Below, one piece after another: positions 22,495 to 62,323 of a stretch of 64,000 nucleotides of DNA. The stretch is from an uncultured delta proteobacterium (GTDB taxonomy: Bacteria > Myxococcota_A > UBA9160 > SZUA-336), in assembly GCA_963704165.1 (NCBI GenBank), contig CAVPHD010000006.1, forward strand, positions 5,497-69,496, in the 5' to 3' direction. The notes beneath the pieces are model-generated. The model ran no database searches, had not been told where the DNA came from, and was given only the letters and a program-made list of their open reading frames with translations. Every line of letters begins with the position of its first letter. The first letter of the stretch is position 1. Made by a program: the position numbers and the translations under genes.

Positions 22495-22542
22495 GCCCGA
22501 GAGCCTACATGGGTGCGCGTCGCCTTTCAGCGCGGTTGTCGA

Positions 22543-23331
22543 TCACCCGCGCATCTGCCGCAGCATCAATCGATCGTAGAGCGACGGCATCCACCGGATG
22601 ATCCACCACGACGCTTTGCCGACGGTCGAGAGGACCCGCAGGCGTCGCCGCGCGACCACGGCGCGGAGGATCGCGTCGGCGACGCTCTCCGGCGTCGCCG
22701 CCTTCCCCACGGTCGCGCGCTCTCCGCTGCCGAGCGCGTGCTGTTCGATCGCGGTGTCGGTGAATCCCGGACAGACCATCGTCACGTCCACGCCGCTGCC
22801 GTCGAGCTCGCAGCGCAGCGTCTCGAAGAGCCCGTGCAGGGCGTGTTTGCTCGCCGAGTAGCCGCTCCGCCCGTAGAGGGGCGCGAGCCCCGCGATGCTC
22901 GACAACACGACGATGGCGCCGCGCCGCGCGACCAGGCTCGAGAGCGCCGCCTGCGTGCAGTGGATCGCGCCGAAGACGTTGATGTCGAAGACGCGGCGGT
23001 ACAGCGACGGCTCCGTGTCGGCGAACTTCCCGAGCTGCGTCACGCCGGCGTTGTTGATCAGCACGTCGACGCCGCCCCAGCGCTCGATCACCGCGGCAAT
23101 CGCCGCTCGGCTCGCCTCTTCGCGCGTGACGTCACAGGGAAGCGCGATGGCGTCGAGTCCGCGCGCGCGCAGATCCGTCGCAACCGCCTCGCCTCCACCG
23201 GCATCCACGTCGAGGATCGCGACCTTCGCTCCAGCGCGCGCAAAGCGATGCGCCAGCGCGCGACCGATTCCGCTGGCCGCACCGGTGATCACGACCACGC
23301 GACCCGAAATCGTACGCTTCGACCGGCGCAT
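22543..23331 (-). CDS. SDR family oxidoreductase
   Basis: 262 aa from ATG 23331 with [32 protein letters not shown]. Confidence 0.88.
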
Positions 23332-23453
23332 CGACGGACCTCCTCGAGCACGAAGACGTGTCTCTGGCGGCTGTTGTATCAGCCTTCGCGCCACTCGGCT
23401 TCGTCACGCGCGCCACGGATCTGGCTTATCCTCGCGGAGGAAGGAGGTGCCCC

Positions 23454-24189
23454 ATGGCTGCTGCCGCGTTCGCGTATGGCGTCCTCAGCTACCTGATCTT
23501 CTTCGCGAGCTTCCTCTACTCGATCGGCTTCGTCGGCAACCTCGGGGTCCCGAAGGCGATCGACACCGGGCCGGCGGGGCCGGCGCCGGAGGCGCTTCTC
23601 GTCGACGTGCTTCTGCTCGGCGTGTTCGCCGTTCAGCACAGCGTCATGGCGCGCCGCGGATTCAAACGCTGGTGGACGCGGTTCGTGCCGGAGTCGGCCG
23701 AGCGCAGCACCTACGTCCTGCTCTCGGGCCTGCTTGCTGTTCCTGCTGTTCTGGAAGTGGCAGCCGATCCTCGGCGTGGTCTGGCAGGTCGAGAACGCCC
23801 TCGGCGTCACCGCGCTCGGGGTCCTGTTCTGGCTCGGCTGGGCGCTGGTCCTCTACTCCACGTTCGCGATCGACCACTTCGATCTCTTCGGCCTGCGCCA
23901 GGTCTGGTTTCGGCTCCGCGGCGCCGAGTACGTGCCGGTCGCCTTCGAGCAGCCGTGGATCTACACGGTCGTGCGGCATCCGCTGCTGCTGGGCTTCTTG
24001 ATCGCCTTCTGGTCGACACCGACGATGACGCAGGGGCACCTGCTCTTCAGCGCGACCGTCACGGCCTACACGTTCCTCGGAATCCTCCTGGAGGAACGCG
24101 ACCTCGTGGACGTCCACGGCGAGGCCTACGTGCAGTATCGTAAGGAGGTGCGCATGCTCCTGCCGCTTCGGCGGCGGAAGCGAGGATGA
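23454..24189 (+). pseudogene. MddA-like (ICMT-fold) membrane methyltransferase; one +1 frame disruption near 23734
   Basis: ATG 23454 after GGAGGAAGGAGG. Frame 1 gives ...[37 protein letters not shown]. Frame 2 gives [16 protein letters not shown]...[14 protein letters not shown]...[26 protein letters not shown]...EERDL. Removing one T restores a 244-aa protein. Confidence 0.75.
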
Positions 24190-24200
24190 GGGGAGAACGC

Positions 24201-25663
24201 ATGACGACGATACCCAAGCGCGGCCTCGAGACCGAGGCTTTGTTCCGCCGCCTCGAGGACTTTCGAAAGCACGACGTGAACTGGCGCGACGGCCGGGTCT
24301 GGGCGTACGTGTACGACCCCGGAGCCGAGGCCGAGGCCGTGATCAAGCGCGCGTACACGATGTACCTGACCGAGAACGCGCTCGACCCGACGGCGTTTCC
24401 GAGCGGGATGCACCTCGAGAACGAACTGGTCTCAATGGCCGCGACGCACCTGCGCGGCGACGCGAACGTGGTGGGCAACTTCACGAGCGGCGGCACGGAA
24501 TCGATCATCTGTGCGGTGAAGGCGGCGCGCGACTTCGCGCGCGAGCAGCGCCCGAAGGCGCTCCGGCCGCACGTTCTCTTGCCGACGACCGCGCACGCTG
24601 CGTTCCACAAGGCCTGTCACTACCTCGACATCGACACCCGCCTCGTTCCCGTCGATCCGAAGAGCTTCCGCGCCGATCCGCGCGCGGATGCGCGACGCCG
24701 TCGACGAGAGCACGATCCTGATGGTCGGTTCCGCGGTCTCCGTACGCGCACGGCGTGGTCGACCCGATTCGCGAGCTCGGCGAGATCGCGATCGAGAAGG
24801 ACCTGCTCTTCCACGTCGACGGCTGCATGGGCGGGTTCCTGCTGCCCTACTTCCGCCGGCTCGGCGCGAACGTGCCGGACTTCGAGTTCAACGTGCCGGG
24901 CGTGACGAGCCTCTCGATGGATTTCCACAAGTACGCGTTCGCCGCGAAGGGCGCGTCGGTGATCCTCTACCGCAGCGCCGATCTGCGGAAGTACCAGATG
25001 TACGCGTGCGCGAACTGGACGGGCTACACCGTGATCAACCCGACCGTGCAGAGCACGAAGTCGATCGGCCCGCTCGCCGCGGCCTGGGCCGTGCTCCATC
25101 ACTTCGGCGACGAGGGCTACCTCGAGATCGCGCGCCAGGTGCTCGACGCGACCCGACGCATCGCGGACGCGATCGAAGCGATGCCCGAGCTGCGCCTGCT
25201 CGGACGGCCCGACATGAACCTGGTCGCATTCGCTTCGGACACGGTGAACGTCTTCCACGTGATCGACGAGATGAAGCTGCGCGGTTGGTACATCCAGCCG
25301 CAGCTCGGCTACGCGAGCTCGCGCGAGAACATCCACCTGTCGATCATGCCGTCGAATGTACGCTGGGTCGACGCGATGCTCGCCGACCTGCGGGAGTGCG
25401 TCGCGAAGGCCGCCACGCTTCCGAGCGGAGAGATCGCGGCCAAGATCCAGGCGGCGTTCGGGAACGTGGACCCGGACTCGATCGGCGACGAGACGATCCG
25501 GGGATTGCTCGCGATGACCGGCGCCGCGGGGAACGCCCTGCCCGATCGCATGGCGGAAGTGAACGAGGTGCTGAACGCCCTGCCCGTTCCGATCCGCGAG
25601 AAGCTCCTCGTCGGCTACCTCAACACGCTCTATCGGCAGCCCGAGGACTCCGGCGGCGGCTGA
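24201..25663 (+). pseudogene. PLP-dependent decarboxylase/lyase (sphingosine-1-phosphate-lyase-like group II); two +1 frame disruptions near 24687 and 24742
   Basis: Three frames join cleanly: ...VDPKSFRADPRA / MRDAVDESTILMVGSAVS / YAHGVVDPIRELGEIAIEKDLLFHVDGCMGGF...SLSMDFHKYAFAAKG (PLP Lys). 1463 nt equals 487 codons plus 2. Confidence 0.8.
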
Positions 25664-25678
25664 GCCGCACCTGGGCCG

Positions 25679-28395
25679 TCAGGCCGACTCTCCGCGCGCC
25701 TTGTCCAGGTGGCGGGCGATCGTCGCGAGCAGAGTCGCACGGTCGATCGGCTTGGTCGCGTAGTCGTCGCAACCGGCTTCCACGCACTTCTCGCGCTCGC
25801 CGGTCATCGCGTGCGCGGTGAGCGCGACGATCGGGCCGCGGTAGCCATCGGCGCGCAGGCAGCGATGTCGCCTCGTAGCCGTCCATCTCCGGCATCTGCA
25901 TGTCCATGAGCACCACGTCGTAAGGCTCGTTCGCCAGCAACGAGGCGAGCGCCATGCGGTGCGCCTCGACGCCGTTCTCGGCGACGTCGACGCTGAGCCC
26001 CGCACGGACGAGCAGGTGGCGCACCAGCTTGCGTGAATCGGGGGTGTCCTCGGCCAGCAGAACCCGACCGCGCAGGTTCGTCGGAACCGCCACGGGCGTT
26101 GCGGCGACCGCCTGCACCACGGGCTGCTCCAGGTCGGTCATCCACTCGACTCCGTCGAGCGGCCCAGGGTCGAGCGAGACCCGGAAGTGGCTGCCCTCGC
26201 CCGGGATCGAGGCTCACGGAGATGTCGCCGCCGAGGAGCTCCGCCATGCGTCGGGAGATCGCGAGGCCGAGACCCGTCCCCCCGAAACGGCGCGTGGTCG
26301 ATGCGTCGGCCTGCGTGAAGGGCTGGAACATGCGACCGATCTGTTCCGCGGTCATGCCGATGCCCGTGTCGACGACGTCGATGACGAGCTTCGCGTCGCT
26401 GAGCCCGACGCGCACGCGCACCGAACCCGATTGCGTGAACTTGATCGCGTTGCCCACCAGGTTGATCAGGATCTGCCGCATTCGCACCGGGTCGGTCCGG
26501 ATGATCGCAGGGAGCGGCAGGACCCACTCGCTCGTCAGCTCGAGGCCCCTCTCGTCGGCTCGGACACGGAGCAGGGAGAGCGTTTCCTCGACGATCTGAC
26601 GCGGCGAGCACGCGATGAACTCCACGCGCATGCGGCCGGCCTCGATCTTCGAGAGATCGAGCACGTCGTTGAGGATCGCGAGCAGGTGACGTCCGTTGCG
26701 CCGGATCGTGTCGACCAGCTCCGCGCGTTCGCCCACTTCGGCGTCGTGTTCCGCGAGCACGTCCGCGAAGCCGAGGATCGCCGTCATCGGCGTGCGCATC
26801 TCGTGGCTCACGTTGGCGAGGAACTCGCTCTTGGCCTGGTTTGCGGCTTCGAGCGAGGCGTTGGTCTCGGCCAGCTCGCGCGTGCGCTCCGTGACCAGCT
26901 CTTCGATCTGGCGCGTGCGCTCGCCGATCACGTGCAGCCAGCCCGTGAGCAGCCCCGTGATCACCCAGCCGACGATCAGCGCCGCGAGCGGAGTCCACGT
27001 CCGGGTCGCTCGGAGAAAAGCCGGCGCGGGAGCCCAGATCGTCGGGAGGTTCCGATCTCCGAAGTGCAGCGTCGTGCGGATGGCGGCGTCCGTCGAGAGC
27101 CCGAGGAGCCGCTTCGCGTCTCGCGGCTCGAGTGGCGTTTCGCGTGTGCTCTCCCAGCCCAGATGCACGACGCGTGCATCGGGCCCCGGCCCGTCGGTCA
27201 CCACGACGTCGAGCCCGACGGGAAGCCAGTCGGCGAAGACCTGGTCGATCAACGGTCCCATCTTCACGATCGCCACCGCAAAGCCGCGGAGCTCGCTGAC
27301 GGGGCCGAACGGGTCGCTCCCGCCCTCGTAGATCGGCATCAGCATCAGATGCGTCGGCTCTCCGTCGGCCTCGTTCGGCAGGAGGATCGCGGGCGACGCC
27401 GCGATGTCGCGCGCGAGCCTCGCCTGCTCGATCGCGCCCGCGATCTCGGGAGACGACGTCAGCTCGTAGTCGAGCAAGCGTTCGTTGCCCGCCCGCGGAG
27501 CGAGCGCGGTGATGGCGAAGTGGTCTTCACCATCGCGCGTCGAGCGCGAGGCGAACGCGAACGCCTGCACCGACCAGGCGTGGATCAGCAACCGGTCGCC
27601 GAAGGCCTCGAACTCCTCCGGCGAAACGTACTCGGAAGCGTCGTGGAGACCCGCGACCGCGTCGAGCGCGTCGCTGACCACGGCGAAGCCGCGTTGGATC
27701 GAGAGCGTTCGTTCGAGCGCGGCGTGGTCCAGGCGACGCGCGGCCGCGTCGACCTCGAGCCGGTTCAGCGCGTCCCAGCCGGCGAAGCTCGCGGTCAGGC
27801 CGATGATGACCGCGACGCGCACCGTCCAACTCGTCCGCGCGCCGAGGAGCGAGATCGCGATCGGGGTGAACGCGATCGTTCCGATCAGCTCCGACCCGAG
27901 CCACGCGATCCAGGTCGACGACACCTCCCCGCGCGGCAACAGACCCGCCAGGTACATCACGGCGACGCCGTACGAAGAGCAGAAGAGCGCGACCAGCGGG
28001 GGCGCGACGATCACGACGCGCACCAGCGCGCGCAGATCGCGAATGTCCTGGCTCGACGCAACCCATCGCCCCGCGGCCGCGGCCACGAGGATCGCGAAGC
28101 TCGCGCCCGTCGCGTAGGTGAATGCAGCGAGCACGCGCGCGAGAGGTTCTTGGAAGTTGAGCGGCATCAGGAGCCCGACGGCGACGATCCCGCAGAAGAG
28201 CCCCGGCCAGACGCGCCAGCCCCAGATCAACGCACCCGCCAACGCGATTCCCGAGGCGGGCCAGACCGGCGCGATCCCGTCGGCGCGAACCGGCGTCATC
28301 CAGACGACTTGCGCGCAGATCATGTACCCGGCCGCGAGGAGCAAATTGGCTCCCCAGGGGAATCTGCGGACGAGACTCGACCACGGCCCGGACAT
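25679..28395 (-). pseudogene. hybrid sensor histidine kinase (MASE1-CHASE-TM-HisKA-HATPase_c-REC); two frame disruptions near 26210 and 25865
   Basis: ATG 28395. MASE1-like N-terminus ([25 protein letters not shown]) and a CHASE-like periplasmic block. [33 protein letters not shown]. Reading then continues in other frames as [13 protein letters not shown]...[14 protein letters not shown]...[17 protein letters not shown] and [18 protein letters not shown]...ATKPIDR. Confidence 0.85.
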
Positions 28396-28434
28396 GTTCC
28401 TCGTATCGGGAAGGACCCGTTTCGGCTTTGGAGT

Positions 28435-28460
28435 CAGATCACGCGCGAGGCGCGGATCTG
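28435..28460 (-). terminator. GC-rich hairpin (11-bp stem with one bulged A, GAG loop) between the PEP-CTERM gene and the kinase start
   Basis: cagatcacgcgc-gag-gcgcggatctg paired by hand. About 70 nt downstream of the PEP-CTERM stop. No U-tract, so terminator function is uncertain. Confidence 0.35.
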
Positions 28461-28528
28461 TGGCGGACGCTTCCGCGAACGGGCCATGTACGACACCCCT
28501 GTCTCGCGGGTGTCGACACCGCAAACGG

Positions 28529-29254
28529 TCAGTGGCTCGCGAACCCCCGTCGGAGAACGAGGAGCGCGACGCCGGTGGAGAGAAGCCATACGGCCGACGG
28601 TTCGGGAACGGCGGTCACGACGACGTTGTCGATCTTGCCGTAGTCGCCCTCGCCATTGTCGAGCCAGAACGCGACCCAGATCGAGGCTTGGTTGTCGGGC
28701 AGCGCGAAGTTCGCGTGCTGCATGACATCGTTCTTGCCGCTGAGCAGCGGCGTCCAGTTCGACCACGCGTAGGGCGTCGATCGCGCGTCGAAGAAGTCGC
28801 TCGATGCGAAAGCCGGAATCGCGCCGACGAAGTAGCCCACCCGGAGCCGATCCGCGCCCGAAGCCGAGAATGTCCGCCAGTCGAAGTCGAGCAGCGTGTT
28901 CGTCATCCCGATCGTGTTGACCTGGAACACGAGACCCGCTTCGTCCTCGAAGCGACCGACCGGCGTGAGATTCGCGGAGCTGCCATAGCGCTGGACCGCG
29001 AGGTCGTTGTTGATCGTGCCGCTGTTGCTCGGGTTCTCGAATCGGATCCCGTACCACCTCTCGTCGGCGCCCTCGGCGATCGTCGGAAGCCCAAGATTCA
29101 CCGGATCGTTCGCGGGATCGAAGGATGGAAAGCTCGTGTAGCCGTTGAACGTCTCCAGGAAGAGCGTCGCTGCGCCTGCGGGGCTCGCACCGAGGCCGAG
29201 CGCGCCGGATATGGCCGTGACGATCAGAGCTGCCCTTGCGATTCGAAGCGACAT
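28529..29254 (-). CDS. PEP-CTERM sorting-domain secreted protein
   Basis: 241 aa from ATG 29254 (GGAGGGA RBS). Signal peptide [29 protein letters not shown]-terminus [26 protein letters not shown]. Confidence 0.8.
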
Positions 29255-29294
29255 CCGAGTCTCCCTCCGACGCTCGACGCTGAGAACTCTTGAA

Positions 29295-29320
29295 TCGCGT
29301 GGTGTGAATCGACCACGCGA
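29295..29320. other. perfect 9-bp inverted repeat (tcgcgtggt / accacgcga, 8-nt loop)
   Basis: Read directly. Lies between the monooxygenase stop (29420) and the PEP-CTERM start (29254). Could be a terminator or an operator. Confidence 0.35.
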
Positions 29321-29419
29321 CCGAGGGCATCCTACCCGCACCGAGTCCGGCAGCACAACGAAATTGTGCAGTTCCGCCACAGAGAGACTGCGTCGTATGT
29401 GAACCCGGAGAGGGCGGGA

Positions 29420-30900
29420 TCAGCGCATGCGCTCGAAGCTCTCGAGCTTGGGCTGCGCCATCTCGTCGCGGAAGCGCTCGAAGGTCCACGGCCAGATCGC
29501 GGGGATGCCGCGGTCGTCGAGGTACCAGCTCCGGCAGCCGGTGGTCCAGATGCGTGTTCTTCGCGGCCATCTCGCTGCGCTCGGCCTCGAACGTCTCCGT
29601 CGCAGCCTCGCGCTCGGGCTGATCTCTCGGCAGCGGCCCGACGCGGAGCTGCTCGACGAGCTGCAGGATGTAGCCGAACTGCAGCTCGGCGACCTCGATC
29701 AGCGAGAAGTTCCCGACCGGTCCGTTCGGGCCGTTCAGCATGAAGAGGTTCGGGAAGTCCGGAATCGAGATCGACGAGGTACGCGCTCGGCCGCTTCGCC
29801 CAGACGCTCGTCGAGCGTGACGCCGCCGCGCGCCGACGATCTTCGATCGGGCCGCATGAAGCGATCGACCGGAAGCCGGTCGCGAGCACGAGCACGTCGA
29901 GCTCGTGCAGGCGCCCGTCCGCGCGTTCGCACGCCCTCGGCTCGATGCGCTCGATCGCCTCGGTCACGAGCTCGGCGTTCGGCTTCTGGATCGCGGCGTA
30001 GAAGTCCGGCGAGATGACGAGCCGCTTGCACGCCGCGCGGTAGTTCGGCCGCAGCTTCTCGCGCAGCACGGGATCGGTCACGCTGGTCTCGAGGTTCGCG
30101 CAGGCACGCCGCCTCGATCACCTTCATCTGCGGCGAGTTCGCATCGACCACGGCGTTCGCGAACATGCCGGCGAACAGACTGCGACATGTTCTCGTGCAG
30201 CTCGCGCAGGAGCTCCGGGTTGCGGCGGAAGCTCTCCTTCTCCTCCTCGCTGTAGGCGAGGTTCTCGTGCGGCATGATCCACTGCGGCGGTGCGCTGGAA
30301 GAGCGAGAGCTTCGCCGACGCGGTCGACGAGCGCCGAGACGATCTGCACCGCCGTCGAGCCGGTGCCGATGATGCCCGACGCGCCGCCCGTCGAGCGTCG
30401 CCGTGTGATCCCAGCGCGCGCTGTGGAAGCACGCGCCGGCGAAGCGAGTCGAGGCCCGCGATGTCGGGCATGCGCGGGTGGTGCAGGACGCCGGTGGCCG
30501 CGATCACGACGTCGGCCTGGTCGCGAGGCCCCGACTTCATCTCGAGCTGCCAGCGACCCTCGCGGAATTCGGCCATCGCGAGCTCCTGGCCATACCGGAT
30601 GAGCTTCTCGACGCCGTACTTGCGCGCGACGCCCTCGAAGTACGTCTGGATCTCGCCGCCGAGGCGAGAAGTGCTCGGCTCCAGTCGGGATTCGGCTCGA
30701 AGGAGTAGGTGTAGAGGTGCGACGGCACGTCGCATGCGACGCCGGGGTATGTGTTCTCGCGCCACGTCCCGCCGAGCCGGTCCGTCTTCTCGTAGATCGT
30801 GATGTCGCGTGAAGCCGGCCTCGTGCAGCTTGATGGCCGACAGGATTCCCGACATTCCCGCACCGATGATCGCGAATCGAAGCTCCCGCTCGCCCGACAT
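29420..30900 (-). pseudogene. Baeyer-Villiger / flavin-containing monooxygenase (type I BVMO-like); about 13 frame disruptions
   Basis: ATG 30900 (GGTGGAGG RBS). Consecutive pieces in alternating frames: [22 protein letters not shown] / [43 protein letters not shown] / [16 protein letters not shown]... / FAGACFHSARWDH / GIIGTGSTAVQIV / ...ATGF... / FPNLFMLNGPNGP / WTTGCRSWYLDD...FERMR-stop. Confidence 0.8.
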
Positions 30901-30997
30901 GCGCACCTCCACCTGGGTTTCGTGGAATCCGCCTTCAATTCGCGCGCCAGCGAGCGCTGCGCTCCTCGAGCGGGCCGCGTGTATATTCCGCGCGGGC

Positions 30998-32298
30998 ATG
31001 AGCAACGTCGCGCTCGCGGTGCAGTTCTTCCTCCAGCTGGCCGCCATCCTGGCGTTCTGCCGGATCGTCGGCGCCGTCGCTGCGAGACTCGGCCAACCGC
31101 AGGTCGTGGCCGAGATGATCGCGGGCGTGATGCTCGGCCCCTCGCTCTTCGGGCTGCTGCTGCCGGAGGCCCAGGCGTGGCTCTTTCCGTGGGACGAGAC
31201 GCCAGTCGGGGCGCGACACGCAGAGCTACCTCTTCCCCGCCTCGCAGCTCGGCCTCGCCCTGTACATGTTCGTGGTCGGCATGGAGTTCCGCACCGACAT
31301 CGTACGGCGCCGACTGCGGAGCTCGATCGTCGTCTCGCTCGCCGGGATGGCCGCGCCGTTCGCGCTCGGCGCCGGTCTGGCCTGGGTCTTCTTCCATCAC
31401 ACGGACTGTTCCCGGCGCAGACGACGCTCGTCGAGGCGATGCTCTTCCTCGGCGCATCGATGTGCATCACGGCGTTCCCGATGCTCGCGCGGATCATCCA
31501 CTTCAAGCGGCTCGCGGGCACCACGATGGGTACCGTCGCGCTCGGCGCGGGCGCGATCGACGACGCCACCGCGTGGTGTCTGCTCGCGGTCGTGCTCGCG
31601 AGCTTCGACGGCGATTGGAGCCACGCCATCTACAACATCGGCGGCGGACTCGCGTACGTGGCCTTCGCGCTCGGCGTGCTCCGCCCGCTTCTCCGCCGCG
31701 CACAGCACTGGTTGCTCCGCGACGGCGCCCTGGGCGAAACCGGGCCTCGCCGTCGGTCTCGCGTTCCTGTCGGTCGGCGCGTGGTTCACGGATTGGATCG
31801 GCCTGCACGCGGTCTTCGGCGCGTTCGTGATGGGAGCGGCGATGCCGCGCGGTGTCGTATCGCGCGGACTGACCACACGCATCGAGCCGCTCACCGTGGC
31901 GCTTCTGCTGCCCGCTCTTCTTCACCTACTCGGGTCTGAACACGAAGATCGGCCTGCTCGACTCGGCGTCGCTCTGGCTGATCTGCGGCGCGGTCCTCGT
32001 CGCAGCGGTGCTCGGCAAGGGCGTCGCATGCGGGCTCGCGGCGCGCGCGACGGGCATCGCCTCGCGCGAGGCGATCGGCATCGGCGCGCTGATGAACGCG
32101 CGCGGGCTGATGGAGCTGATCATCATCAACATCGGCCTCGCTCGCGGCGTGATCTCGAACGAGCTCTTCGCCACGCTCGTGATCATGGCGATCATCACGA
32201 CGCTGATGGCCTCGCCGATCTTCGAGCTCGTCGTCGGCAGTGGGAACGTCGTGGCCGAACCGGAAGCGGACGCGTCGCGCGACGCCGAAGCGGCCTGA
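30998..32298 (+). pseudogene. cation:proton antiporter (CPA2/Kef-like); about 4 frame disruptions
   Basis: [49 protein letters not shown]... continues in other frames as [80 protein letters not shown]. Shifts near 31200, 31402, 31740 and 31915. Confidence 0.8.
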
Positions 32299-32320
32299 CC
32301 TCGGGGAGAGCGGGCGGCCG

Positions 32321-33497
32321 CTAGCCGGGTTGCCCGTCGAGACGCGGACGCACGAGCATCGGCACGTAGTGCAGCAGGAAGACCGCGTACGCCGCGGCCC
32401 AGAGAAACGCGGCGAGCGCGATCACGTGCAGGTACGGATCGGGAAACACGAGCGCGCCCAGCGTGCGCACGAGCGCGGCGGCGCTGACGAGCAGATAGGC
32501 GATGGTCGCGGCGCGCGGAGCCAGGCAGCGGACGGCCGGTGTGACCGAGCACGACGCGGGTCATCACGGCGAGAATCATCGTGCCGATCGCGCCCGTCGT
32601 CTCGGCGTGCAGGCCGACGCTCGACGGGATCGCGCCCGTGAGGTCGGCGAGCGCGACCGCGCCGAGCCCGATCGCGACCCACGCATAGCCGAGATGCAGC
32701 GACCAGAGCAGCGGATCGTGCTTCGTGCGCAGCGTCTGCCAGCCGGACATGCGCAGAGCGACGGCGAGCGCGGCGAAGAGCGCGATCGCTCCGCTCGCGG
32801 CCGTGCGCGGGAAGAGCAGGTTCGCGAGCGCGACGCCGACCGCCCCGACGATCGCGGCGCGGTCGAGCCACGGCCGGGTGACGACGACGGCTGCGATGCC
32901 GTCACGGCGGAAGGTGTTCGCGGTGAAGGCCGGCGTGATGCGGCCACCCATCACGACGATCAGGACGATCGCGAGATCGACGCCGACGCGAAGACGCGAT
33001 CGGCGCCAGGCCGGGCGCGAGGCCCAGCGCGTCGAGATGCGCGATGACGTTCAGGAGCGCGAGCGCCGTCAGGATCAGCGGGAAGCCGAAGTTCCGCTTC
33101 TGCCGCGCGGCGACGATCGGCCGCGCGATCACGAACGCGAGCGCCGGCAGGAACGCGACGTCGATCGCCCGCGACCCACGCGACGCGGAACGACCCCCGC
33201 GAAGACCATCGCGACGCGGCCGGCGAGCCAGAGCGCCGCGAGAGCTCCGAGCCCGGCGCCGGTGACCGGTCGCGACTGCGTCCAGGTCGGCGCCGCCGTG
33301 AGCAGGAACCCGGATGCGGCCGCGACGACGAAGCCGAAGACCATCTCGTGCGCGTGCCAGAGCGAGGGCGTGTAGGCGAGCCAGCCCGGCTCGGGCAGGA
33401 CGCCCGCGTAGATCGCGAGCCAGGCGAGCACGGCGACCGACGCCTGCAGGCCCGCGAGCAGGAAGAACGGACGGAACGCGCGACCGAGCAGCGTCAC
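32321..33497 (-). pseudogene. NnrS family membrane protein; at least 3 frame disruptions
   Basis: GTG 33497 (VTLLGRAFRPFFLLAGLQA...WHAHEMVFGFV). Continues AIDVAFLPALAFVIARPIVAARQKRNF, then MGGRITPAFTAN...HLGYAWVAIG...HAETTGAIGTMILAVMTRVVLGHTGRPL, then ...FLLHYVPMLVRPRLDGQPG-stop at 32321. Shifts near 33165, 32990 and 32525. Confidence 0.75.
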
Positions 33498-34689
33498 GCC
33501 GGGACCGCGGTCGTCGAGCACGCAGCGCACGCCGCCGACATCCATCTCGGCGACGCAGACGTTGCAGTGCGTGCAGCGCGAGCGCGCGCGCCGCATCGCT
33601 CGCCATGCGCCGAACCAGATCGGGATCGGCGATCAGCGCGCGGCCCATCGCGACGAAGTCGAACCCTTCCGCCATCGCGGCGTCGACGTTCGCGCGCGAG
33701 ACGATCCCGCCGAGCAGGACGAGCGGCATGCGACACGGCCGCTCGCACCTCGCGCGCCTGCTTCAGGAAGAACATCTCCTCGAACGGGTACTCGCGGATC
33801 ACGCGCTCGCCAAAGTAGCGCAGCACGAACTTCTGCCCATCCGGCTCTTGTCCGCCGCGATCATCTCGGCGAGCGGGCGCTGGCCGCGGAACAGGTAGAA
33901 CGGCGACTTGCTCGTGAAGCCGCCGGACAGCACGAGGGCGCTCGCGCCCTCGCGCTCGAGCAGGCGCGCGAGCGCGACCGCGTCGGGAAGCTCGAGCCCG
34001 CCGCGGAAGCCGTCGCGCAGGTTCATCTTGCACAGGATCGGAAAGCCCGGCGCCGACCACCTCGCGCACGCGCCGCAGCACCTCGAGCGAGAACCGCGCG
34101 CGGGCCTCGAGATCGCCGCCGTAGCCGTCCTTGCGCCGGTTCGTCGCCGGGCGAGAGGAACTGCGAGAGCAGGTAGCCGTGACCGAGGTGGAGCTCGACC
34201 GCGTCGAAGCCGGCGTCGCGCGCCAGACCCGACGCGCGACCGAAGTCCTCGACCACGCGCGCGATCTCGCGCGCGTTCATCGCAAGCGCCAGCGGCTCGC
34301 CCGCGCTGAGCCCGTAGCCGTTCACGGCGAGCGACGGGCCGCGCGGAAACCACGTCGAGAGCTCCGCGTTCTTCGTGAACCAGCCGCAGTGACCGAGCTG
34401 GAGCGACGCCGCGCCGCCCTCGCGGTGCACCGCGTCGGTGACGCGGCGCAACGGCGACACCGTCTCGGGCCGCATCGTCATCTGCTCCGCGAACGTGCGG
34501 CCGTCGGGCGAGACCGCGCAGTACGCGACGGTCGTCAGCCCGACGCCCGCCGGCGGCGAGCACGCGGTGGTGCTCGACGAGCGCGTCCGACGGGATCCCG
34601 CCCGGGCACATGCCCTCGTAGGTCGCCGTCTTGATCACGCGGTTGCGCAGGTCGAGCGCGCCGAGGCGCGCGGGCGCGAAAGCATTCAT
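33494..34689 (-). pseudogene. NADH:flavin oxidoreductase (Old Yellow Enzyme family); 6-7 frame disruptions
   Basis: ATG 34689 (MNAFAPARLGALDLRNRVIKTATYEGM). Then ...LQLGHCGW..., GFDAVELHLGHGYLLSQFLSP, NRRKDGYGGDLEARARF, FPILCKMNLRDG, MPLVLLGGIVS...FVAMGRALIADPDLV, CTHCNVCV. The last readable frame has no stop before the NnrS start; the stop at 33494 is reached only after one more shift. Confidence 0.78.
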
Positions 34690-34702
34690 TTCCGTGTCCA
34701 CC

Positions 34703-35471
34703 TCAGAAGCGATCGGGTCGGATCTCGGCGTCGTTCCCGCCGTCGATGTAGTGGATCGAGCCGTGGATCCAGCTCGCGCGGCGACCGAGCAGGAACGCCG
34801 CGAACTCGGCGATCTCCTCGGGCTCGCCGATCCGCCCGAGCGGGATCTGAGAGCCTTTCGATCGCAGCGCCGGTGACGGGATCGGCCATGTCCCCCGCGA
34901 GCAGCGGCGTTCTCACCGGACCGGGCGCGACGGCGTTGAGCCGCACACCCGCGCGTCCCCAGTCGCCCGCTCGCCGACGCACGGCGCGCCCGAGTGCGTG
35001 CTTCGCGCCGAGGTACGCGACGATCGAGCTGTCGCCGGCGTCGGCGAGCCGGCGCGCCTCGGCCTCGTCCTGCGCGAGCAGCGCGACGACGTACGGATGC
35101 TCGTCGAGCCGGGCCATCTGCGCGGAGTTCGAGCAGACCACGAGCGCCGCGGGATCGGTGCCCGAGCGCAGCGCGGGAAGCAGGCGATCGAGAACCTCGA
35201 CCGCCCCGAAGAAGTTCACCGAAGCGACGCGCGACGGCGGCCGCACGTGCGTCCCCACGCCGGCCGAGAGCACCAGCCGATCCAGGCACTGCTCACTTCG
35301 CGAGAGCACGGCCTCGACCGCCGCCTCCCGGCCATCGCGCGTCGAGAGATCCGCGATCACCTCGGCGTCCCGCAGATCGATCCCGATCACCCGCGCGCCA
35401 TCCGCCTCGAGGCGGCGTCGGATCGCCGCGCCAATCCCCGACGCGCTGCCCGTGACCGCGGCGACGCTCAT
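34703..35471 (-). pseudogene. SDR family oxidoreductase (3-alpha-hydroxysteroid-dehydrogenase-like); one frame disruption near 34860
   Basis: ATG 35471 overlaps the asnS stop (ATGA). MSVAAVTGSASGIGAA, YLGAKHA, NAVAPGPVRTPLL. The last about 50 aa continue in another frame: IPLGRIGEPEEIAEFAAFLLG...YIDGGNDAEIRPDRF-stop at 34703. Confidence 0.75.
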
Positions 35472-36825
35472 CAGAACTCCGCGTACCCGGGAACGCGCGG
35501 AAACGGAATGACGTCGCGGATGTTCGCCATTCCCGTCAGGTAGAGCACGAGCCGTTCGAAGCCCAGACCGAAGCCCGCGTGCGGCACCGATCCGAAGCGC
35601 CGCAGGTCGAGGTACCACTGGTACGGCGACTCGGGAAGGCCGCACTCCGCCAGGCGCGCGCGCAGCACATCGACCCGGTCCTCGCGCTGCGAGCCCCCGA
35701 TGATCTCGCCGACCTTCGGCACGAGCACGTCCATCGCCCGCACGGTCCGGTCGTCGTCGTTCAGGTACATGTAGAAGGCTTTGATCGTCTTCGGGTAGTC
35801 GGTGACGATCACGGGGCGGCCGACGTGCGTCTCGGTCAGGTAGCGCTCGTGCTCGCTCGCGAGGTCGGCGCCCCACTTCACCGGAAACTCGAAGTCCTGG
35901 CCGGAACGCTTCGAGGATCGCGACCGCATCTCCGTAGGTCAGGTGCTCGAACGCGCTCTCGGCCACGTGCTCGAGCGTCGCGCGCAGTCCCTTCGAGATC
36001 CGCTCGTCGAAGAACGCGAGGTCCTCGGCCGACTCGTCGAGGACGGCCTTCACCACGTAGCGCAGGAACGACTGGGCGAGATCCATGTCGCCGCGCAGAT
36101 CGCAGAAGGCCATCTCGGGCTCGATCATCCAGAACTCCGCGAGGTGGCGGCTGGTGTTCGAGTTCTCGGCGCGGAAGGTCGGTCCGAAGCGTGTAGACGT
36201 TCGAGAGCGCGAGCGCGCCGATCTCGGCCTCGAGCTGGCCCGAGACGGTCAGGAACGCGGGCCGGCCGAAGAACTCCGCCGTCGAACTCCGGCACGGTCA
36301 CGCGGAACATCGAGCCCGCCCCCTCCGCGTCGCTCGTCGTGATGATCGGCGTGTGCAGCCAGACGAAGCCCCGCTCCTGGAAGAAGCGGTGCACGGCGCG
36401 CGCGGCGACGTTTCGCACGCGCAGCACCGCGCCGAGCGTGTTCGTGCGCGGGCGCAGGTGGGCGATCGTGCGCAGGAACTCGAAGCCGTGGCGCTTCTTC
36501 TGCAGCGGATAGTCGGGATCGGCCCAGCCGACGACCTCGAGCCGCGTGGCGCGAAGCTCGACGCGTCTGCCCCTTGCCCTGCGAGGGAACGAGCTCACCG
36601 TCGACCACGACCGCGCAGCCGGTGTCGAGCTTCGACGATCTCCGCTTCGTAGTTCGCAAGCTCGGGACCGGCGACGACCTGCAGCCCCGCGAGGCTCGAT
36701 CCGTCGGAGAGATCGAGGAACGAGACGCCCTTCGAGTGCCGCGCCGTGCGCAGCCAGCCGCGCACGCCGACCGATTCGCCCGCGCTTCCGCGCGCGAGCA
36801 GGTCCACGACCCGCGAGAACGCCAT
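35471..36825 (-). pseudogene. asnS: asparagine--tRNA ligase; 4 frame disruptions plus an in-frame lesion in motif 2
   Basis: ATG 36825. [26 protein letters not shown] / [15 protein letters not shown] / [34 protein letters not shown]...[21 protein letters not shown] / [17 protein letters not shown]...[24 protein letters not shown] / [11 protein letters not shown]...GGSQRE...[34 protein letters not shown]. Shifts near 36640, 36570, 36275 and 35925. Confidence 0.85.
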
Positions 36826-36874
36826 CCACCTCTCCCCGGAGCCGATCCGTTCGGGCCATCCTAGCGGAGCGAGA

Positions 36875-36903
36875 TTGACAGCGAGAGTGCGTTTCCGTTT
36901 CAT
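36875..36903 (+). promoter_or_regulatory. candidate sigma70-type promoter TTGACA - 17 nt - TTTCAT, giving a near-leaderless MFS transcript
   Basis: Consensus -35 hexamer at 36875-36880, exact 17-nt spacer, -10 hexamer at 36898-36903. ATG at 36916 has no Shine-Dalgarno sequence (ccgcgcgcgcgcATG). Confidence 0.35.
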
Positions 36904-36915
36904 CCGCGCGCGCGC

Positions 36916-38351
36916 ATGTCAGACGACCCCGACGACGAGCGGCCGTTCGGAATCCTGGGCGGACGACGCTACCCGCGAGTGCCGATCGCGCGCGACGCGG
37001 CGATCCTCCGCCGCGACCTCGCCTACGTCCACACCGACGCGATCGCCGCGAGCGTGATGGTCGGCACCGGCGAGACCTACATCGCCGCGTTCGCGCTCGC
37101 GCTCGGCCTCGGCGACATCGTCGCCGGCATCGTCGCGTCGGGGCCGCTGCTCGCCGGCGCGGTGCTCCAGCTGATCTCACCCTGGGCGGTTCGACGTCTC
37201 GGCTCGCACCGACGCTGGGTGGTGTGGACGGCCGGAGCTGCAGGCCGCGAGCTTCGTCGCCGCTGATCGTCGCCGCGCTGCTCGGACGGCTCAGCGCCAT
37301 CGGCTTGCTCGCGATCGCGACCTTCTACTGGGCCACCGGCATGGCCGCGGGCCCGGCCTGGAACACCTGGGTCGGCACGATCGTTCCCCGCCGCCTGCGC
37401 GCGCGCTTCTTCGCGCGTCGCAGCCGCGTCGGCCAGGCGGCGCTGCTCGCGGGCCTGCTCGGCGGCGGCGCGATCCTGCACGTCTGCGAGTCGGCGGGAG
37501 AGAAGCTGATCGGCTTCGCGCTGCTCTTCGCGCTCGCGGGAGCTGGCGCGCGGCGTATCTCTGCCTGGCTGCTCGCGCACCAGAGCGAGCCGGACCCGCT
37601 CGTCGAACGCGTGAGCGGCGGCCTCGACCTCGCGCCCCCGCCCTCGACCCCCGGCAATCGCCGTCTGCTCGCGTACCTGCTCGCGGTGCAGACGAGCGTG
37701 CACATCGCTGCGCCCTTCTTCACGCCCTACATGCTCGGCGAGGGCGCGCTCGGCCTCTCGTACGTCGGCTACATGACGCTGATCGCGGCGTCGTTCGTCT
37801 CGAAGATCTTCGCGCTGCCCTGGCTCGGGCACTTCTCGGCGCGGCACGGCGCACGGCGATTGCTGCGGCTCGCGGGCCTCTCGATCGTGCCGCTGCCCGC
37901 ACTCTGGACGTTCTCGAACGACTTTTCGGTTCTGCTCGCGATCCAGCTCGTCAGCGGCGTCGCGTGGGGCGCGCACGAGCTCGCCACCTTCCTGCTCTTC
38001 TTCGACGCGATCCGCCCGGAGGAGCGCACGCGTGTGCTCACCTGGTTCAACCTGGCGAGCGCGACGGCCATGGTCGTCGGAGCCGCGGCCGGCGGCTGGT
38101 TCCTGAGCTCGCAGGGCGCCGATCTGCCCGGCTACGCGACACTTTTCTGGATCAGCGCGGGAGCACGCGCGCTGACGCTGCCGCTGCTCGCGTGGATGCC
38201 GGACATCAAGATCTCGGCCCCGCCGCCGGCGATGCGCATTCTGGCGGCGCGTCCGTCCTCGGGCTCGATCGACCGGCCGGTGCTCTCCGACCGCGAGGAC
38301 AGCCCGATCGACGGGCCGCCCGAGCCCGCCCCGCTCAGCGCGCCTCCGTAG
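36916..38351 (+). pseudogene. MFS transporter; one frame disruption near 37235
   Basis: N-terminal 105 aa (track ORF 36916..37266) and the remainder (track ORF 37224..38351) are both multi-TM, and they join at ...SHRRWVVW / ...[16 protein letters not shown]. 1436 nt equals 479 codons minus 1. Confidence 0.72.
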
Positions 38352-39931
38352 CGCGGAGCCGCTCGAGCGCGCGCAGCGCGCGCTCGTCGCCGGGCAGGAG
38401 CGCGAGGTGTACGCGGTACTCCGCGATCGCGTCGTCTCTCCGGCCGGCCTGCTCGAGGGCGGACGCGAGGTAGAGATGGCGTTCGCCGTTGCCCCCGGTC
38501 GAGGGATCGATTCCCAACGCGAGCGTCAAGTGGTGGGCGGCTTCCTCCGCGCGGCCGACGCGAAGCAGCACGAAGCCGTAGTTCGCCTGCGCCCGCTCCC
38601 AGTTCGGCGCGATCGAGACCGCGCTCGCCAGCCGCGCGAGCGCCTCCACGTCGCGCCCGCGCGCGGCCAGCTCGATTCCCGCTTCGGTGTCGGCGAACCA
38701 GTTTCGCTCGGTGACGTCCACCGCGCGCTGCCAGAGCACGAGGTCGTCGATCCAGAAGGCCAGCTGCGCGCGGCTGGTCGCGGCGAACGCGACCAGCGCG
38801 GCGCAGACGGCGAGCCGTCGCGACGCGGAGAGCCAGCCTCGTGCCCGGCACCGCGAAGACCAGCGCGAGCCAGACACCGATCTGTGGCAGGTAGGTGTAG
38901 CGGTCGGCGGTCGATTGGAAGCCGACTTGCACGACGCCGAGCGTCGGCGCGAGCCCGATCGCGAAGAACGCCAGCCCCGAAGCGATGAACGGCATGCGCC
39001 TGCGGAGCGCGAACGCGATCGCCGCGAGCGCCAGGACCGACGCGCCCGAGGCGATCACCGTGCCGAGCGGCCAGGTTCCCGGGTGCGGGTACAGCACCGC
39101 GAGATCGCTCGGCCAGAGCGCGCGGCCGAGCTGGCTCGCGAGGCCGACGAGCGCGTTCGAGATCCGGTCGATGAGCCCGAGGTCGGGCGAGATCGCGCCG
39201 ACCTGCGCGCGGAGCGTGACGAGCGAGGAGCCGAGCGCGAGCGCTGCGTACGGGAGCTTCTCGATGATGCGCAGGCCCCGACGCAGCGGCCAGAAGTCGA
39301 AGACGAAGAGCATCAACGGCAACGACACGAGCATCGGCTTCGCGAGCAGCCCGAGCGCCATGCAGGCGAGCGAGATCCCGTAGGCCGCGAACGAGCGGCT
39401 CCGGGCGAAGCGCGTCCACGCCAGCAGCGAGAGCAGCGTGAAGCCCGCGCAGAGCAGGTCCTTGCGTTCGGCGATCCAGGCCACCGACTCGACGCGCTGC
39501 GGGTGCAGTGCGAAGAGCGCGGCGATCGCCGCACTCCGGCCGGTCGAGCCGGTGAGTCCCGCGAGCCAGAGGAAGACCAGACACGCGTTCAGCGCGTGAA
39601 GAAGCGCGTTCTCGACGTGCGGTCCCGATGCGCCCGTCCCGAAGACCTCGACGTCCACCATGTGCGAGAGCCAGGTCAGCGGATGCCAGTTGCTGGCGTG
39701 AAAGCTCGTGAACGCCCAGCGCACGCTCGCGACGGTGAGGCCCGCCTGGACCTCGGGGTTCTCGGTCACGTACTGCTCGTCGTCGTAGAACAGGAACGGA
39801 AGACCGCGAACCGGGGCGTAGACGACGAGCGTCGCGGCGACGAGCGCGGCACAGACAACGATCGAACCCGCCCGGCGGCTCAAAGCGCGCCCCTCCCCGC
39901 AGAGACGGCAGTCTACAACGCGGGCTATCAT
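38335..39931 (-). pseudogene. TMTC/PMT-like membrane glycosyltransferase (DUF1736 region) with C-terminal TPR repeats; one frame disruption near 38850
   Basis: ATG 39931. Polytopic N-terminus with NWHPLTWLSHM and LHPQRVESVAWIAERKDLL. The C-terminal TPR part (track ORF 38335..38877: ...NWERAQANYGFVLLRVGRAEEAAHHLTLAL...) is in another frame. Confidence 0.7.
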
Positions 39932-60377: not shown

Positions 60378-61352
60378 TCAGGAGAGGCCGAGCGCGAGCC
60401 AGACGCGCTCGATCAGCCAGAATCCCGCGAGCGACCCGAAGGCATAGGCGAGGGGTCGCTCGAACGCGCGCAGCGAGCGGACGAAGAGCAGGAGCACGGC
60501 GACGAAGGCGAGCTGACCGAGCTCGATTCCGACGTTGAAGCTCGCGAGCGCGAGCGGCACGTCGCTCGCGGGCAAGCCCGCCTCGCGGAGCGCGGCGGCG
60601 AAGCCGAAGCCGTGGAGCAGGCCGAACGCGGCCGCGACCGGCGCGGGCCGCAGACGGCGCGGACGACCGGACGCGAGCTCGACCGCGAGCCAGAAGACAC
60701 TCGCGGCGATCGCGACCTCGATCGGGCCGGCCGGCAGCTGCACGAAGCCGAGCGCAGACGCGCAGAGCGTCAACGCGTGACCCGCGGTGAACGACGTCAC
60801 CGTCGCGATCAGCGTGCGACGGCTTCTCACCAGGAGCACCAGCCCGGCGACGAAGAGCAGGTGATCCAGACCGCCGAGGATGTGCCAGAGACCGAGCTCG
60901 AGGTACGAGCGGATCGTGTCGATCGGCTCGGCGCGCGCGGGGACCACGAAGAGCGGACGGTCGGCGTCGATCACCGCCCGCGCGACCGTCCCGTCCTCGA
61001 GCTCGACGCGCACCAGCGCGTTGGTCGCGCTCGCGCGCAGCCCCTCGATGCCGAGCGTCCGGCCGGCGAGCGGCTCCGGACCGCAGTCGAGCGCCGAGAC
61101 ACGCGTCTGCGCGAGCGCATCGCGTTCGAATCGCGCCGGCGAGCTCTCGCGGCAGCCCGCGGGTAGAACGGGAACGAGCGGCGCGCCCTGCGCGCGCACG
61201 ATCGGGGTGCGAAAGATCAGGCTCGCACGGCCGTTCGCGTGCTCGCGAAGTTCGAGCAGCGAAGGTGCGAAGGGATGCGCGCGCGCATTCGCAGCGCCGA
61301 GCACGCCGAGCGCGGCCAGCAGGAACGACGCCACGAGCGTCGCGGACTTCAC
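60378..61352 (-). CDS. HupE/UreJ family membrane protein with N-terminal periplasmic extension
   Basis: 324 aa from GTG 61352, which overlaps the upstream stop (GTGA). Signal peptide, then GLWHILGGLDHLLFVAGLVLL and FGLLHGFGFAAAL, NVGIELGQL. Confidence 0.8.
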   Translation of the reverse strand: MKSATLVASFLLAALGVLGAANARAHPFAPSLLELREHANGRASLIFRTPIVRAQGAPLVPVLPAGCRESSPARFERDALAQTRVSALDCGPEPLAGRTLGIEGLRASATNALVRVELEDGTVARAVIDADRPLFVVPARAEPIDTIRSYLELGLWHILGGLDHLLFVAGLVLLVRSRRTLIATVTSFTAGHALTLCASALGFVQLPAGPIEVAIAASVFWLAVELASGRPRRLRPAPVAAAFGLLHGFGFAAALREAGLPASDVPLALASFNVGIELGQLAFVAVLLLFVRSLRAFERPLAYAFGSLAGFWLIERVWLALGLS

Positions 61353-62323
61353 GAGCGCTCCCCTTCGACGCGGATCTCGTAGCGATGGCGCAGCCGTTCG
61401 AGCGCAGCGCGCAGAGCCGCGTCTTCGCGCTCGCGCGAGAGCGCCGCCGAGATCTCGATGCGTCGCGCGGCGAATACGGGCTCTGCCGCTTCGGTTCGCT
61501 CGTGCACCCAGACGAGATGGATCCCGTAGCTCGACGGAATCGGCGCGGAGACGCGTCCCGGTTCGAGAGCGAAGACCTCGCGCGCGAACCCCGCGCCGAA
61601 GACGCGCTCGAGATCCGTCCGAGAGCGATTCGGAGCGTGTGACCGAGCAGGAAGGCATCGCCGCGCCCGATCGCCCCCTCGATCTCGAGCGCCCCGTCGG
61701 AGATCTGCTCGGCGAGTCTTCGCGCGTCCGCGGCGAGCCGCATCCCCACGTCGCTCTCGAGAGAGGAAGACGTGCGAGAGTCGGACGCGCACGGGGCCGA
61801 CGACGCGCGCGCGATCCCGAGCGAATCGCGCTGCGATCTCGGACTCGCTCGGCATCGAGCCCTCGCCGATCGAAAGCTCCGCGCGCATTCGCTCGATCAG
61901 CCGCCGTCGCACGACCAGATCGCCCCGCCCGATCCCGAGCGCGAGCGCTTGCGCCACGCGCGACGCGTCGCCCGCGGCATTCGCGCGCTCGTCCTCGCCG
62001 GAGATGAAGCCGATGTTCCGCGCCAGTCGCGTCCGGACGACGGGGTCGCCGACGTCGAATCCCCGAACGCGCGCTTCGCGAAGCAGGATCTCGTCGTCGA
62101 TCTCGGCCCCGATCAGCGCGTCGAGCGTTTCCTCGTCGGGCCACGCTCCGGTTCGCGCGGCCCAGTCCGCACGCAGCTCGTCGATTCGCACGGCGCGGAT
62201 CTCGATCCGATCCCGAGGCCGCTCGTCGGGGAACGCCTCCGCGACGATCCAGCGATCCGCCGCGAACAGCACCGCGCCGAGCGCGAGAAAGTGAAGCGCG
62301 GGAGACGCGAGGACGCGCCGCAT
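61349..62323 (-). pseudogene. PpiC/parvulin-type peptidyl-prolyl isomerase-like protein; two compensating frame disruptions near 61745 and 61635
   Basis: Track ORF 61349..62323 is open throughout. However, residues between RLSHVFLSRER and NRSRTDLERVFG read as Arg-rich junk, whereas the alternative frame gives ADARRLAEQISDGALEIEGAIGRGDAFLLGHTL, which fits the parvulin domain. C-terminus ...SAPIPSSYGIHLVWVHER. Confidence 0.65.

Follow-up and report, generated by a model that had tools for sequence, protein, structure and literature searches.

The frame breaks that interrupt a run of neighbouring genes in the window, the whole stretch of 64,000 nucleotides that was analysed, most probably (we put the probability at about 0.93) are insertion errors left behind where the polishing of a metagenome-assembled genome, presumably built by a long-read or hybrid strategy, locally failed, and not mutations of the organism. 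The observation is almost certainly a data-quality problem, neither gene decay nor new biology. The affected block is one instance of a defect found throughout the genome and is not unique in it.

In the block (23.46-39.85 kb), 11 out of 12 genes require frame changes for read-through. The total is about 48-50 events, compared to three in the remaining 47 kb of the window. In the GC3 frame plot, best-frame runs are about 1,200 nt long outside the interval 23.4-39 kb but only about 300 nt long inside it. A codon-usage dynamic-programming (DP) caller yields 30 frame switches at positions 23733-38815, whereas credible switches outside the block are found only at 271, 61619 and 61762. Were these 33 events spread uniformly over the window, at least 30 would fall into the block with binomial probability about 5e-15 (hand calculation). 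The first-pass annotation had listed disruptions in all block genes save the small PEP-CTERM gene, as well as three more breaks near 272 and 61745/61635. This list agrees with the DP caller and, for the block, with the ortholog alignments, and the approximate positions given there are nearly matched in the deposited sequence. The block is not uniform: there are five events in 23.7-26.2 kb, none in the clean 3-kb interior at 26.2-29.4 kb, and a dense series in 29.5-37.3 kb. The breaks pay no heed to strand (four affected genes are on the plus strand, seven on the minus strand) or to operon boundaries. With the frames corrected, about 2,900 codons of the block read through without a single internal stop, in accordance with the earlier remark that nonsense codons are absent. 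Searching the window with Rfam yielded no structural RNA suitable as a frame-independent error check.

A genome of the same genus, G007, has intact syntenic orthologs and served as the reference for indel calls. The first-pass annotation had proposed protein alignment with orthologs as a check. Frameshift-aware alignment to G007 places two events in the kinase gene, 15 in BVMO, four in CPA2, three in NnrS, six in OYE, one in SDR, five in asnS and two in the MFS gene (full names are given below), and none in six flank genes (ABC-F, UbiA, MBL, alpha/beta hydrolase, MATE, methyltransferase). The DP caller produced no switches on the 8.86-kb syntenic stretch of G007 itself. In the DNA alignment, the G007 orthologs lack all of these block insertion sites.

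The first gene of the block, encoding an NnrU/MddA-like membrane methyltransferase (23463..24189, plus strand), has one +1 break near 23733, as detected by the DP caller. The Pfam NnrU match extends over residues 49-206 of the read-through product, hence across this break at about residue 90. The same caller finds two +1 breaks, near 24669 and 24739, in the PLP-dependent decarboxylase-like gene (24213..25663, plus strand), and both are crossed by the Pfam Pyridoxal_deC match at residues 35-340. In the hybrid sensor histidine kinase gene (25679..28524, minus strand), two single-base insertions (about 26211 and about 25859) break the C-terminal receiver part, and the region 26.2-28.5 kb is clean. 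The tblastn matches of the kinase are spread over three frames, and its identity to the G007 ortholog in the frameshift-aware alignment is 78%. The sole intact gene of the block encodes a PEP-CTERM-tailed secreted protein (28529..29227, minus strand) and has no breaks according to the DP caller. The tail is read at the C-terminus of the DP gene, and no Pfam match was found for the protein. This gene is absent from the corresponding position in G007, where BVMO adjoins the kinase gene.

The densest spot is the gene for a Baeyer-Villiger-type flavin monooxygenase, BVMO (29422..30900, minus strand). DNA alignment to the G007 coding sequence (87% identity) contains 15 single-base insertions, one 2-base insertion, three single-base deletions and two in-frame 3-base insertions, that is, about 21 indels in 1.25 kb, 19 of them frame-breaking. 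Despite this, the divergence of the gene is ordinary: the protein alignment has 82% identity and no stops, and dN/dS is 0.235.

The next gene encodes a CPA2 cation/proton antiporter (30998..32296, plus strand). It has three insertions (31200, 31742, 31910) and one deletion (31405), as placed by tblastn and the G007 alignments. The positions in the following genes come from the G007 alignments. The gene for an NnrS family membrane protein (32323..33497, minus strand) has insertions at 33184, 33165, 32997 and 32523. That for an Old-yellow-enzyme type NADH:flavin oxidoreductase, OYE (33494..34695, minus strand), has six insertions (34548, 34154, 34050, 33733, 33590, 33510), plus one of 2 bases at 33838. 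The short-chain dehydrogenase (SDR) gene (34705..35471, minus strand) contains one inserted A at 34848 in the MAFFT alignment.

The gene asnS, encoding asparagine-tRNA ligase (35473..36858, minus strand), has insertions at 36633, 36562, 36277, 36190 and 35913 relative to G007. According to whole-genome tblastn, it is a single-copy gene, and its dN/dS is 0.167. The read-through asnS protein was compared to a collection of 5.8 billion proteins. Nearly all of the 120 listed relatives are full-length (about 446-475 aa, with 449 aa in those from the same genus), and all of them are encoded by a plain open frame. No same-species sequence is among these 120, the best match having 92% identity. A 41-mer taken from asnS has no exact match in metagenome_contigs, and no exact-protein match was found for the flanking MBL gene.

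At the right end of the block, the MFS transporter gene (36916..38349, plus strand) has insertions at 37238 and 37257, seen both by tblastn and in the G007 alignments. An additional +1/+2 pair at 37541/37556 adds up to one codon, possibly a natural in-frame difference. The last gene encodes a PMT_2-type glycosyltransferase with C-terminal TPRs (38335..39850, minus strand; Pfam PMT_2 and TPR) and has one +1 break near 38815. It is absent from this position in G007. In the relatives G008, G003 and G002, residues 1-501 of the query are matched in one open frame, and in the genome under study (G000) the matches are 1-346 and 345-504 in two frames. A small separate spot of the same kind lies outside the block, in the gene for a PpiC-type PPIase (61349..62293, minus strand). 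The DP caller finds breaks there at 61762 and 61619, and the Rotamase_2 domain (residues 148-274) crosses both.

Alignment with the G007 coding sequences yields 46 indels: 37 single-base insertions, three two-base insertions, four single-base deletions and two in-frame 3-base insertions. There are no large deletions relative to G007, and indeed no deletions longer than 1 nt. Only five of the 37 inserted single bases copy a neighbour, and 32 form a run of length 1, so replication slippage, in homopolymers or otherwise, is ruled out as the source of the indels. Out of 28 inserted G or C bases, 18 are followed by the complementary base, and they often split CC or GG. This context is odd, and we cannot assign it to a specific technology.

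One alternative, also considered in the first-pass annotation, is that the genes of a real contiguous tract were recently inactivated in the organism, through local or genome-wide decay. We consider it very unlikely. The breaks do stand in the deposited sequence, and the fraction of affected genes in the genome, 13% of those predicted, is what a decaying genome could show. Pseudogene-rich decaying genomes, such as those of Mycobacterium leprae and recently host-restricted symbionts, also contain many disrupted frames, including those of consecutive genes. However, such genomes carry nonsense mutations, deletions, IS insertions and traces of relaxed selection, and none of these is seen here: nonsense codons and IS insertions are absent, no deletion exceeds 1 nt, and selection is not relaxed. 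Indel mutations of bacteria tend towards deletions and repeat contexts. Here, on the contrary, 40 insertions are observed versus four deletions, and about 90% of events are +1 insertions, mostly not copying a neighbour.

The absence of stops is also telling. The share of stop-creating changes among possible substitutions in the corrected codons is 2.46%. If neutral substitutions are at least ten times as frequent as indels, which is our own assumption, about 45 indels would be accompanied by about 450 substitutions and about 11 new stops. None is seen (Poisson P about 2e-5). Same-frame pairs of genes split by a stop are not in excess genome-wide, and hence there is no nonsense signal at that scale either. 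The selection pressure is normal as well: dN/dS is 0.17-0.34 and dS is 0.25-0.43 in the block genes, compared to 0.12-0.34 and 0.30-0.38, respectively, in three clean flank genes. Thus the relaxed selection or extra divergence expected of broken genes is not observed. Finally, the clusters of breaks cross strands and operons and follow the GC content, and single-copy asnS carries five insertions. The lack of nonsense codons, large deletions and relaxed selection, together with the state of asnS, thus speaks against a tract of dead genes.

Even less probable, in our opinion, is that the +1 insertions are real in the living population, having arisen in a recent localized burst of non-templated single-base insertions in GC-rich tracts, or with the extra bases removed or skipped in expression. 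Either of these, if true, would amount to a mutational or recoding process not yet known in Myxococcota. The specific variant in which the genes stay functional and real extra bases are bypassed by programmed +1 frameshifting, transcript-level nucleotide deletion or quadruplet decoding deserves hardly any credence. In its favour, nearly all events share the +1 sign, the corrected proteins are well conserved, and a +1 frame change inside a conserved gene resembles the situation in prfB, but sites of programmed +1 ribosomal frameshifting are single, motif-defined and conserved in orthologs, whereas here there are dozens of sites, missing both from the G007 orthologs and from the plain open frames of the listed asnS relatives, with a density that reaches about 15 per kb in one gene and falls to zero in neighbouring ones, and clustered by genomic position rather than by gene, strand or transcript. 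A shared recoding motif was looked for and rejected, as the 37 sites have nothing in common beyond the GC-rich context.

We now return to consensus errors of the assembly as the preferred explanation. The genome consists of 12 contigs (up to 701 kb), totalling 3.87 Mb, with 84% estimated completeness. The DP caller applied genome-wide yields approximately 854 frame switches (+1 in 662 cases, the other type in 192) in 460 of 3,582 predicted genes and on all 12 contigs. These figures are approximate: the caller gives some false positives, with one probable case in 4.2 kb of another genome, and in dense stretches about 40% of events escape it. The switches are strongly clustered: 55% of them fall into 70 segments comprising 3.6% of the genome, and clean gaps reach 54 kb. 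The GC content of the patches is 70.0% versus 68.3% elsewhere (p = 3e-9). The reading of the block as an unpolished stretch, the other possibility raised in the first-pass annotation, is supported by these approximately 70 similar patches on all contigs, by the indel spectrum, by the lack of decay signs and by the five insertions in single-copy asnS. The defect extends across the assembly independently of gene function and strand, it consists of 1-2-base indels with neither nonsense codons nor excess substitutions, and orthologs are intact at the same positions (in G007; in G008, G003 and G002 for the TPR-glycosyltransferase; in the relatives for asnS).

Most probably, the greater part of the genome was brought to good accuracy, and scattered patches of 1-7 kb retained errors of the raw-read type, mainly isolated extra bases with a frequency of about 3-5 per kb. 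The largest such patch is the core of the block. Each extra base shifts the frame, so that any sizeable gene of a patch looks broken on either strand, while the well-polished flanks read clean. The likeliest cause of the patchiness is that short-read polishing or short-read contigs missed slightly GC-richer stretches; local dips of depth or strain heterogeneity are alternatives. Residual indels and frameshifts are documented in long-read assemblies, where low coverage or local heterogeneity leaves regions unpolishable, and a frameshift-aware tool, proovframe, exists for such errors (bioRxiv 10.1101/2021.08.23.457338). Homopolymer-derived indels needed short-read polishing for correction (Sereika et al. 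2022, PMC9262707).

The present case resembles errors of long-read or hybrid assemblies in that single-base indels split conserved genes genome-wide in a very contiguous assembly, the estimated completeness is lowered, there is no signature of nonsense mutations or substitutions, and the events are concentrated where polishing presumably did not reach. Indirectly, from its 12 contigs of up to 701 kb, in a genome of an uncultured lineage with 84% estimated completeness, we infer that it was built from long reads. On the other hand, residual Nanopore errors are usually described as homopolymer-related, whereas here they are overwhelmingly insertions and mostly outside homopolymers. This insertion-dominated pattern appears more like PacBio CLR than Nanopore; the raw error rates of PacBio are reported as about 8% insertions versus 3% deletions (bioRxiv 10.1101/2021.08.23.457338). 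Also unlike the usual residual errors of long reads, the mosaic is very sharp, with no events in the 20-kb flanks and 3-15 per kb in the core.

The bearing of these observations is on annotation rather than on biology. About one in eight predicted genes of this genome is split or mistranslated, including asnS and, as judged by eye, the genes for methionine synthase and a class A penicillin-binding protein. Patches of errors imitate pseudogene islands. Since no same-species sequence was found and the collection contains one genome per species, this genome is probably the representative of its species in reference sets. Without correction of the frames or renewed polishing of the assembly, the errors will pass into gene calls, completeness estimates, pathway reconstructions and pseudogene counts based on it. 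A simple triage rule can be suggested: an artefact is indicated when the breaks are clustered, nearly all +1 and not copies of a neighbour, with no nonsense codons and with normal dN/dS.

Frameshifted genes recognised by eye elsewhere in the genome include those for MetH, the class A PBP, an acyl-CoA carboxylase, an RND pump, a P-type ATPase and an NRPS. The 23S rRNA gene is located at C3:29370-32349, and its neighbourhood is fairly clean.

The frame breaks between approximately 23.4 and 39.9 kb of the window are most simply explained as residual insertion errors, left where polishing missed parts of a long-read or hybrid MAG (probability about 0.93). This estimate rests on comparative and statistical evidence. 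No independent same-species sequence was found by exact look-up of the flanking MBL protein, among the listed asnS relatives (best 92% identity) or, for an exact 41-mer of asnS, in metagenome contigs.

In G007, a genome of the same genus, the genes encoding the MFS transporter, AsnS, a short-chain dehydrogenase (SDR), an old-yellow-enzyme type oxidoreductase (OYE), NnrS, the CPA2 antiporter, a Baeyer-Villiger-type monooxygenase (BVMO) and a hybrid sensor histidine kinase have the same order as in the window, and all are intact ORFs. When these eight proteins are compared with the window by tblastn, all eight matches are broken across frames; each of six flanking genes gives one full-length match. 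The protein-to-genome placement proposed in the first-pass annotation was done by frameshift-aware alignment to the G007 proteins. It yields 38 events: two in the kinase gene, 15 in BVMO, four in CPA2, three in NnrS, six in OYE, one in SDR, five in asnS and two in MFS, as against none in the flanking genes. The corrected proteins are 78-90% identical to those of G007 (82-94% in the flanks), and this alignment reveals no internal stops in the frame-corrected block genes. Four block genes had no G007 counterpart at hand. In two of them, the NnrU/MddA-like and the PLP-decarboxylase-like genes, Pfam domains continue through the breaks, as is also the case in the PPIase gene at 61.3-62.3 kb, outside the block. 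Residues 1-501 of the TPR-glycosyltransferase are matched in one open frame by three further relatives (G008, G003, G002), and here the gene is split into 1-346 and 345-504. The fourth, the PEP-CTERM gene, is intact, in agreement with the initial reading that it is the only unbroken gene of the block.

The breaks are also seen without a reference. With third-codon-position GC as the marker of the true frame in this 68% GC genome, the best-frame run length is about 1.2 kb in the flanks and about 0.3 kb at 23.4-39 kb. A Viterbi-type gene caller, using codon log-odds learned from 765 long ORFs of this genome and allowed to skip one or two bases at a penalty, finds 30 frame switches at 23733-38815, nearly all of them a few bases from the breaks initially listed. 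After calls at most 45 nt from gene ends are dropped, only 271, 61619 and 61762 remain outside the block, where three breaks had been noted. The binomial chance of such crowding, calculated by hand under uniform spread, is about 5e-15; the flanks of about 20 kb are clean. The same caller finds no switches in the 8.86-kb syntenic stretch of G007. The description as one contiguous tract is only partly correct: there are five events at 23.7-26.2 kb and a dense core at 29.5-37.3 kb, where BVMO alone contains about 21 indels within 1.25 kb in the DNA alignment to G007, but none at 26.2-29.4 kb.

Seven coding sequences were aligned base by base to G007 DNA, itself verified by translation. The window contains 37 single-base insertions, three 2-base insertions, four single-base deletions and two in-frame 3-base insertions. 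The 37 inserted bases are strand-symmetric (G 14, C 14, T 6, A 3); only five repeat a neighbour and 32 form runs of length 1. Many are unambiguous, with perfectly matching flanks, e.g. CTACAC[G]CTTCGG in asnS and GCCGTG[T]CGCATG in OYE. Most natural single-base insertions duplicate a base within a run, and deletions predominate among bacterial indel mutations. A spectrum with approximately 90% insertions that do not copy the neighbour is a sequencing-consensus signature. For raw PacBio reads, errors of about 8% insertions versus 3% deletions are reported (bioRxiv 10.1101/2021.08.23.457338). At aligned sites in 29554-36633, the complementary base directly follows the inserted G or C in 18 of 28 cases, often CC to CGC or GG to GCG, and CG directly follows the inserted T in five of six; this odd context may point to one specific basecaller or polisher.

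The alternative, a real tract of inactivated genes, fails its defining tests, spectrum and selection. After the frame-breaking bases were taken out, dN/dS relative to G007 is 0.17-0.34 in seven block genes and 0.12-0.34 in three clean neighbours, with dS of 0.25-0.43 and 0.30-0.38, respectively. Even BVMO, despite its roughly 19 frame-breaking indels, is in line with the other genes (dN 0.085, dS 0.36). Approximately 2,900 corrected codons contain no stops, confirming the first-pass annotation, although 2.46% of possible substitutions would create one; about 11 would be expected if neutral indels came with ten times as many substitutions, an assumed ratio. The asnS gene, with five insertions, is the sole copy in the genome; it is intact in all 120 relatives listed, nearly all of them full-length and none same-species. 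Recoding of the extra bases was rejected on its own defining tests, motif and conservation.

Genome-wide, there are about 854 edge-filtered frame switches (662 of type +1, 192 other). They affect 460 of 3,582 predicted genes and every one of the 12 contigs; these counts are approximate, as one call in a 4.2-kb locus of another genome was probably false. The switches are strongly clustered (variance-to-mean 3.6 in 5-kb bins, 57% of bins empty): 70 segments with median length 1.7 kb, or 3.6% of the genome, hold 55% of events, and clean gaps extend up to 54 kb. The longest such segment is the core of the block. The segments are slightly richer in GC (70.0% vs 68.3%, p = 3e-9). Relative to out-of-frame junctions, gene pairs separated by an in-frame stop are not in excess, and therefore there is no genome-wide nonsense signal.

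Thus the spectrum, normal selection, genome-wide patches and intact G007 orthologs all support the unpolished-assembly reading of the first-pass annotation. Residual insertion errors would account for patches that take no notice of strand or operon boundaries, for the perfect flanks and the otherwise normal conservation of the proteins, and for the same mosaic across the whole genome. Possible causes of the patchiness are a loss of short reads in GC-rich stretches, long-read consensus used to fill gaps, local drops in depth, or strain heterogeneity. Judging by the source names of close homologs, the genome belongs to an uncultured lineage of Myxococcota (formerly Deltaproteobacteria). The assembly (3.87 Mb, 68% GC, 12 contigs, the longest 701 kb; the window is C6:5497-69496) combines high contiguity with a depressed estimated completeness of 84%, which suggests an error-prone long-read MAG. 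Another genome of the genus, G005, is also very contiguous (3 contigs, 4.9 Mb) with a low estimated completeness, 74%, and may contain frameshift errors of the same kind.

About 70 other patches of this type are spread over all contigs of the genome, for instance at C4:361079-367239, C4:23986-27522, C10:19707-23447 and C11:215916-224111. Among the broken genes, those for methionine synthase (C7:6453-9227) and a class A penicillin-binding protein (C1:518809-521172) were recognised by eye, as were genes for an acyl-CoA carboxylase, an RND pump and an NRPS.

The gene content also differs from that of G007. The PEP-CTERM gene (28529-29227) and the TPR/PMT_2 glycosyltransferase gene (38335-39850) are absent at the syntenic positions, where BVMO adjoins the kinase and MFS adjoins an MBL-fold gene, respectively. 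They are small lineage-specific insertions, possibly connected with exopolysaccharide or exosortase functions. In the interval from UbiA to the kinase, the window (20476-25663) contains genes for an alpha/beta hydrolase, an SDR, the NnrU/MddA-like methyltransferase and the PLP-decarboxylase-like protein, and G007 (L011:2152-5733) a TetR regulator and a second BVMO. The hybrid histidine kinase belongs to a large set of paralogs in this genome and in the genus (window 4924-6150 and many other loci), its HisKA-HATPase part having dozens of matches at 66-72% DNA identity.
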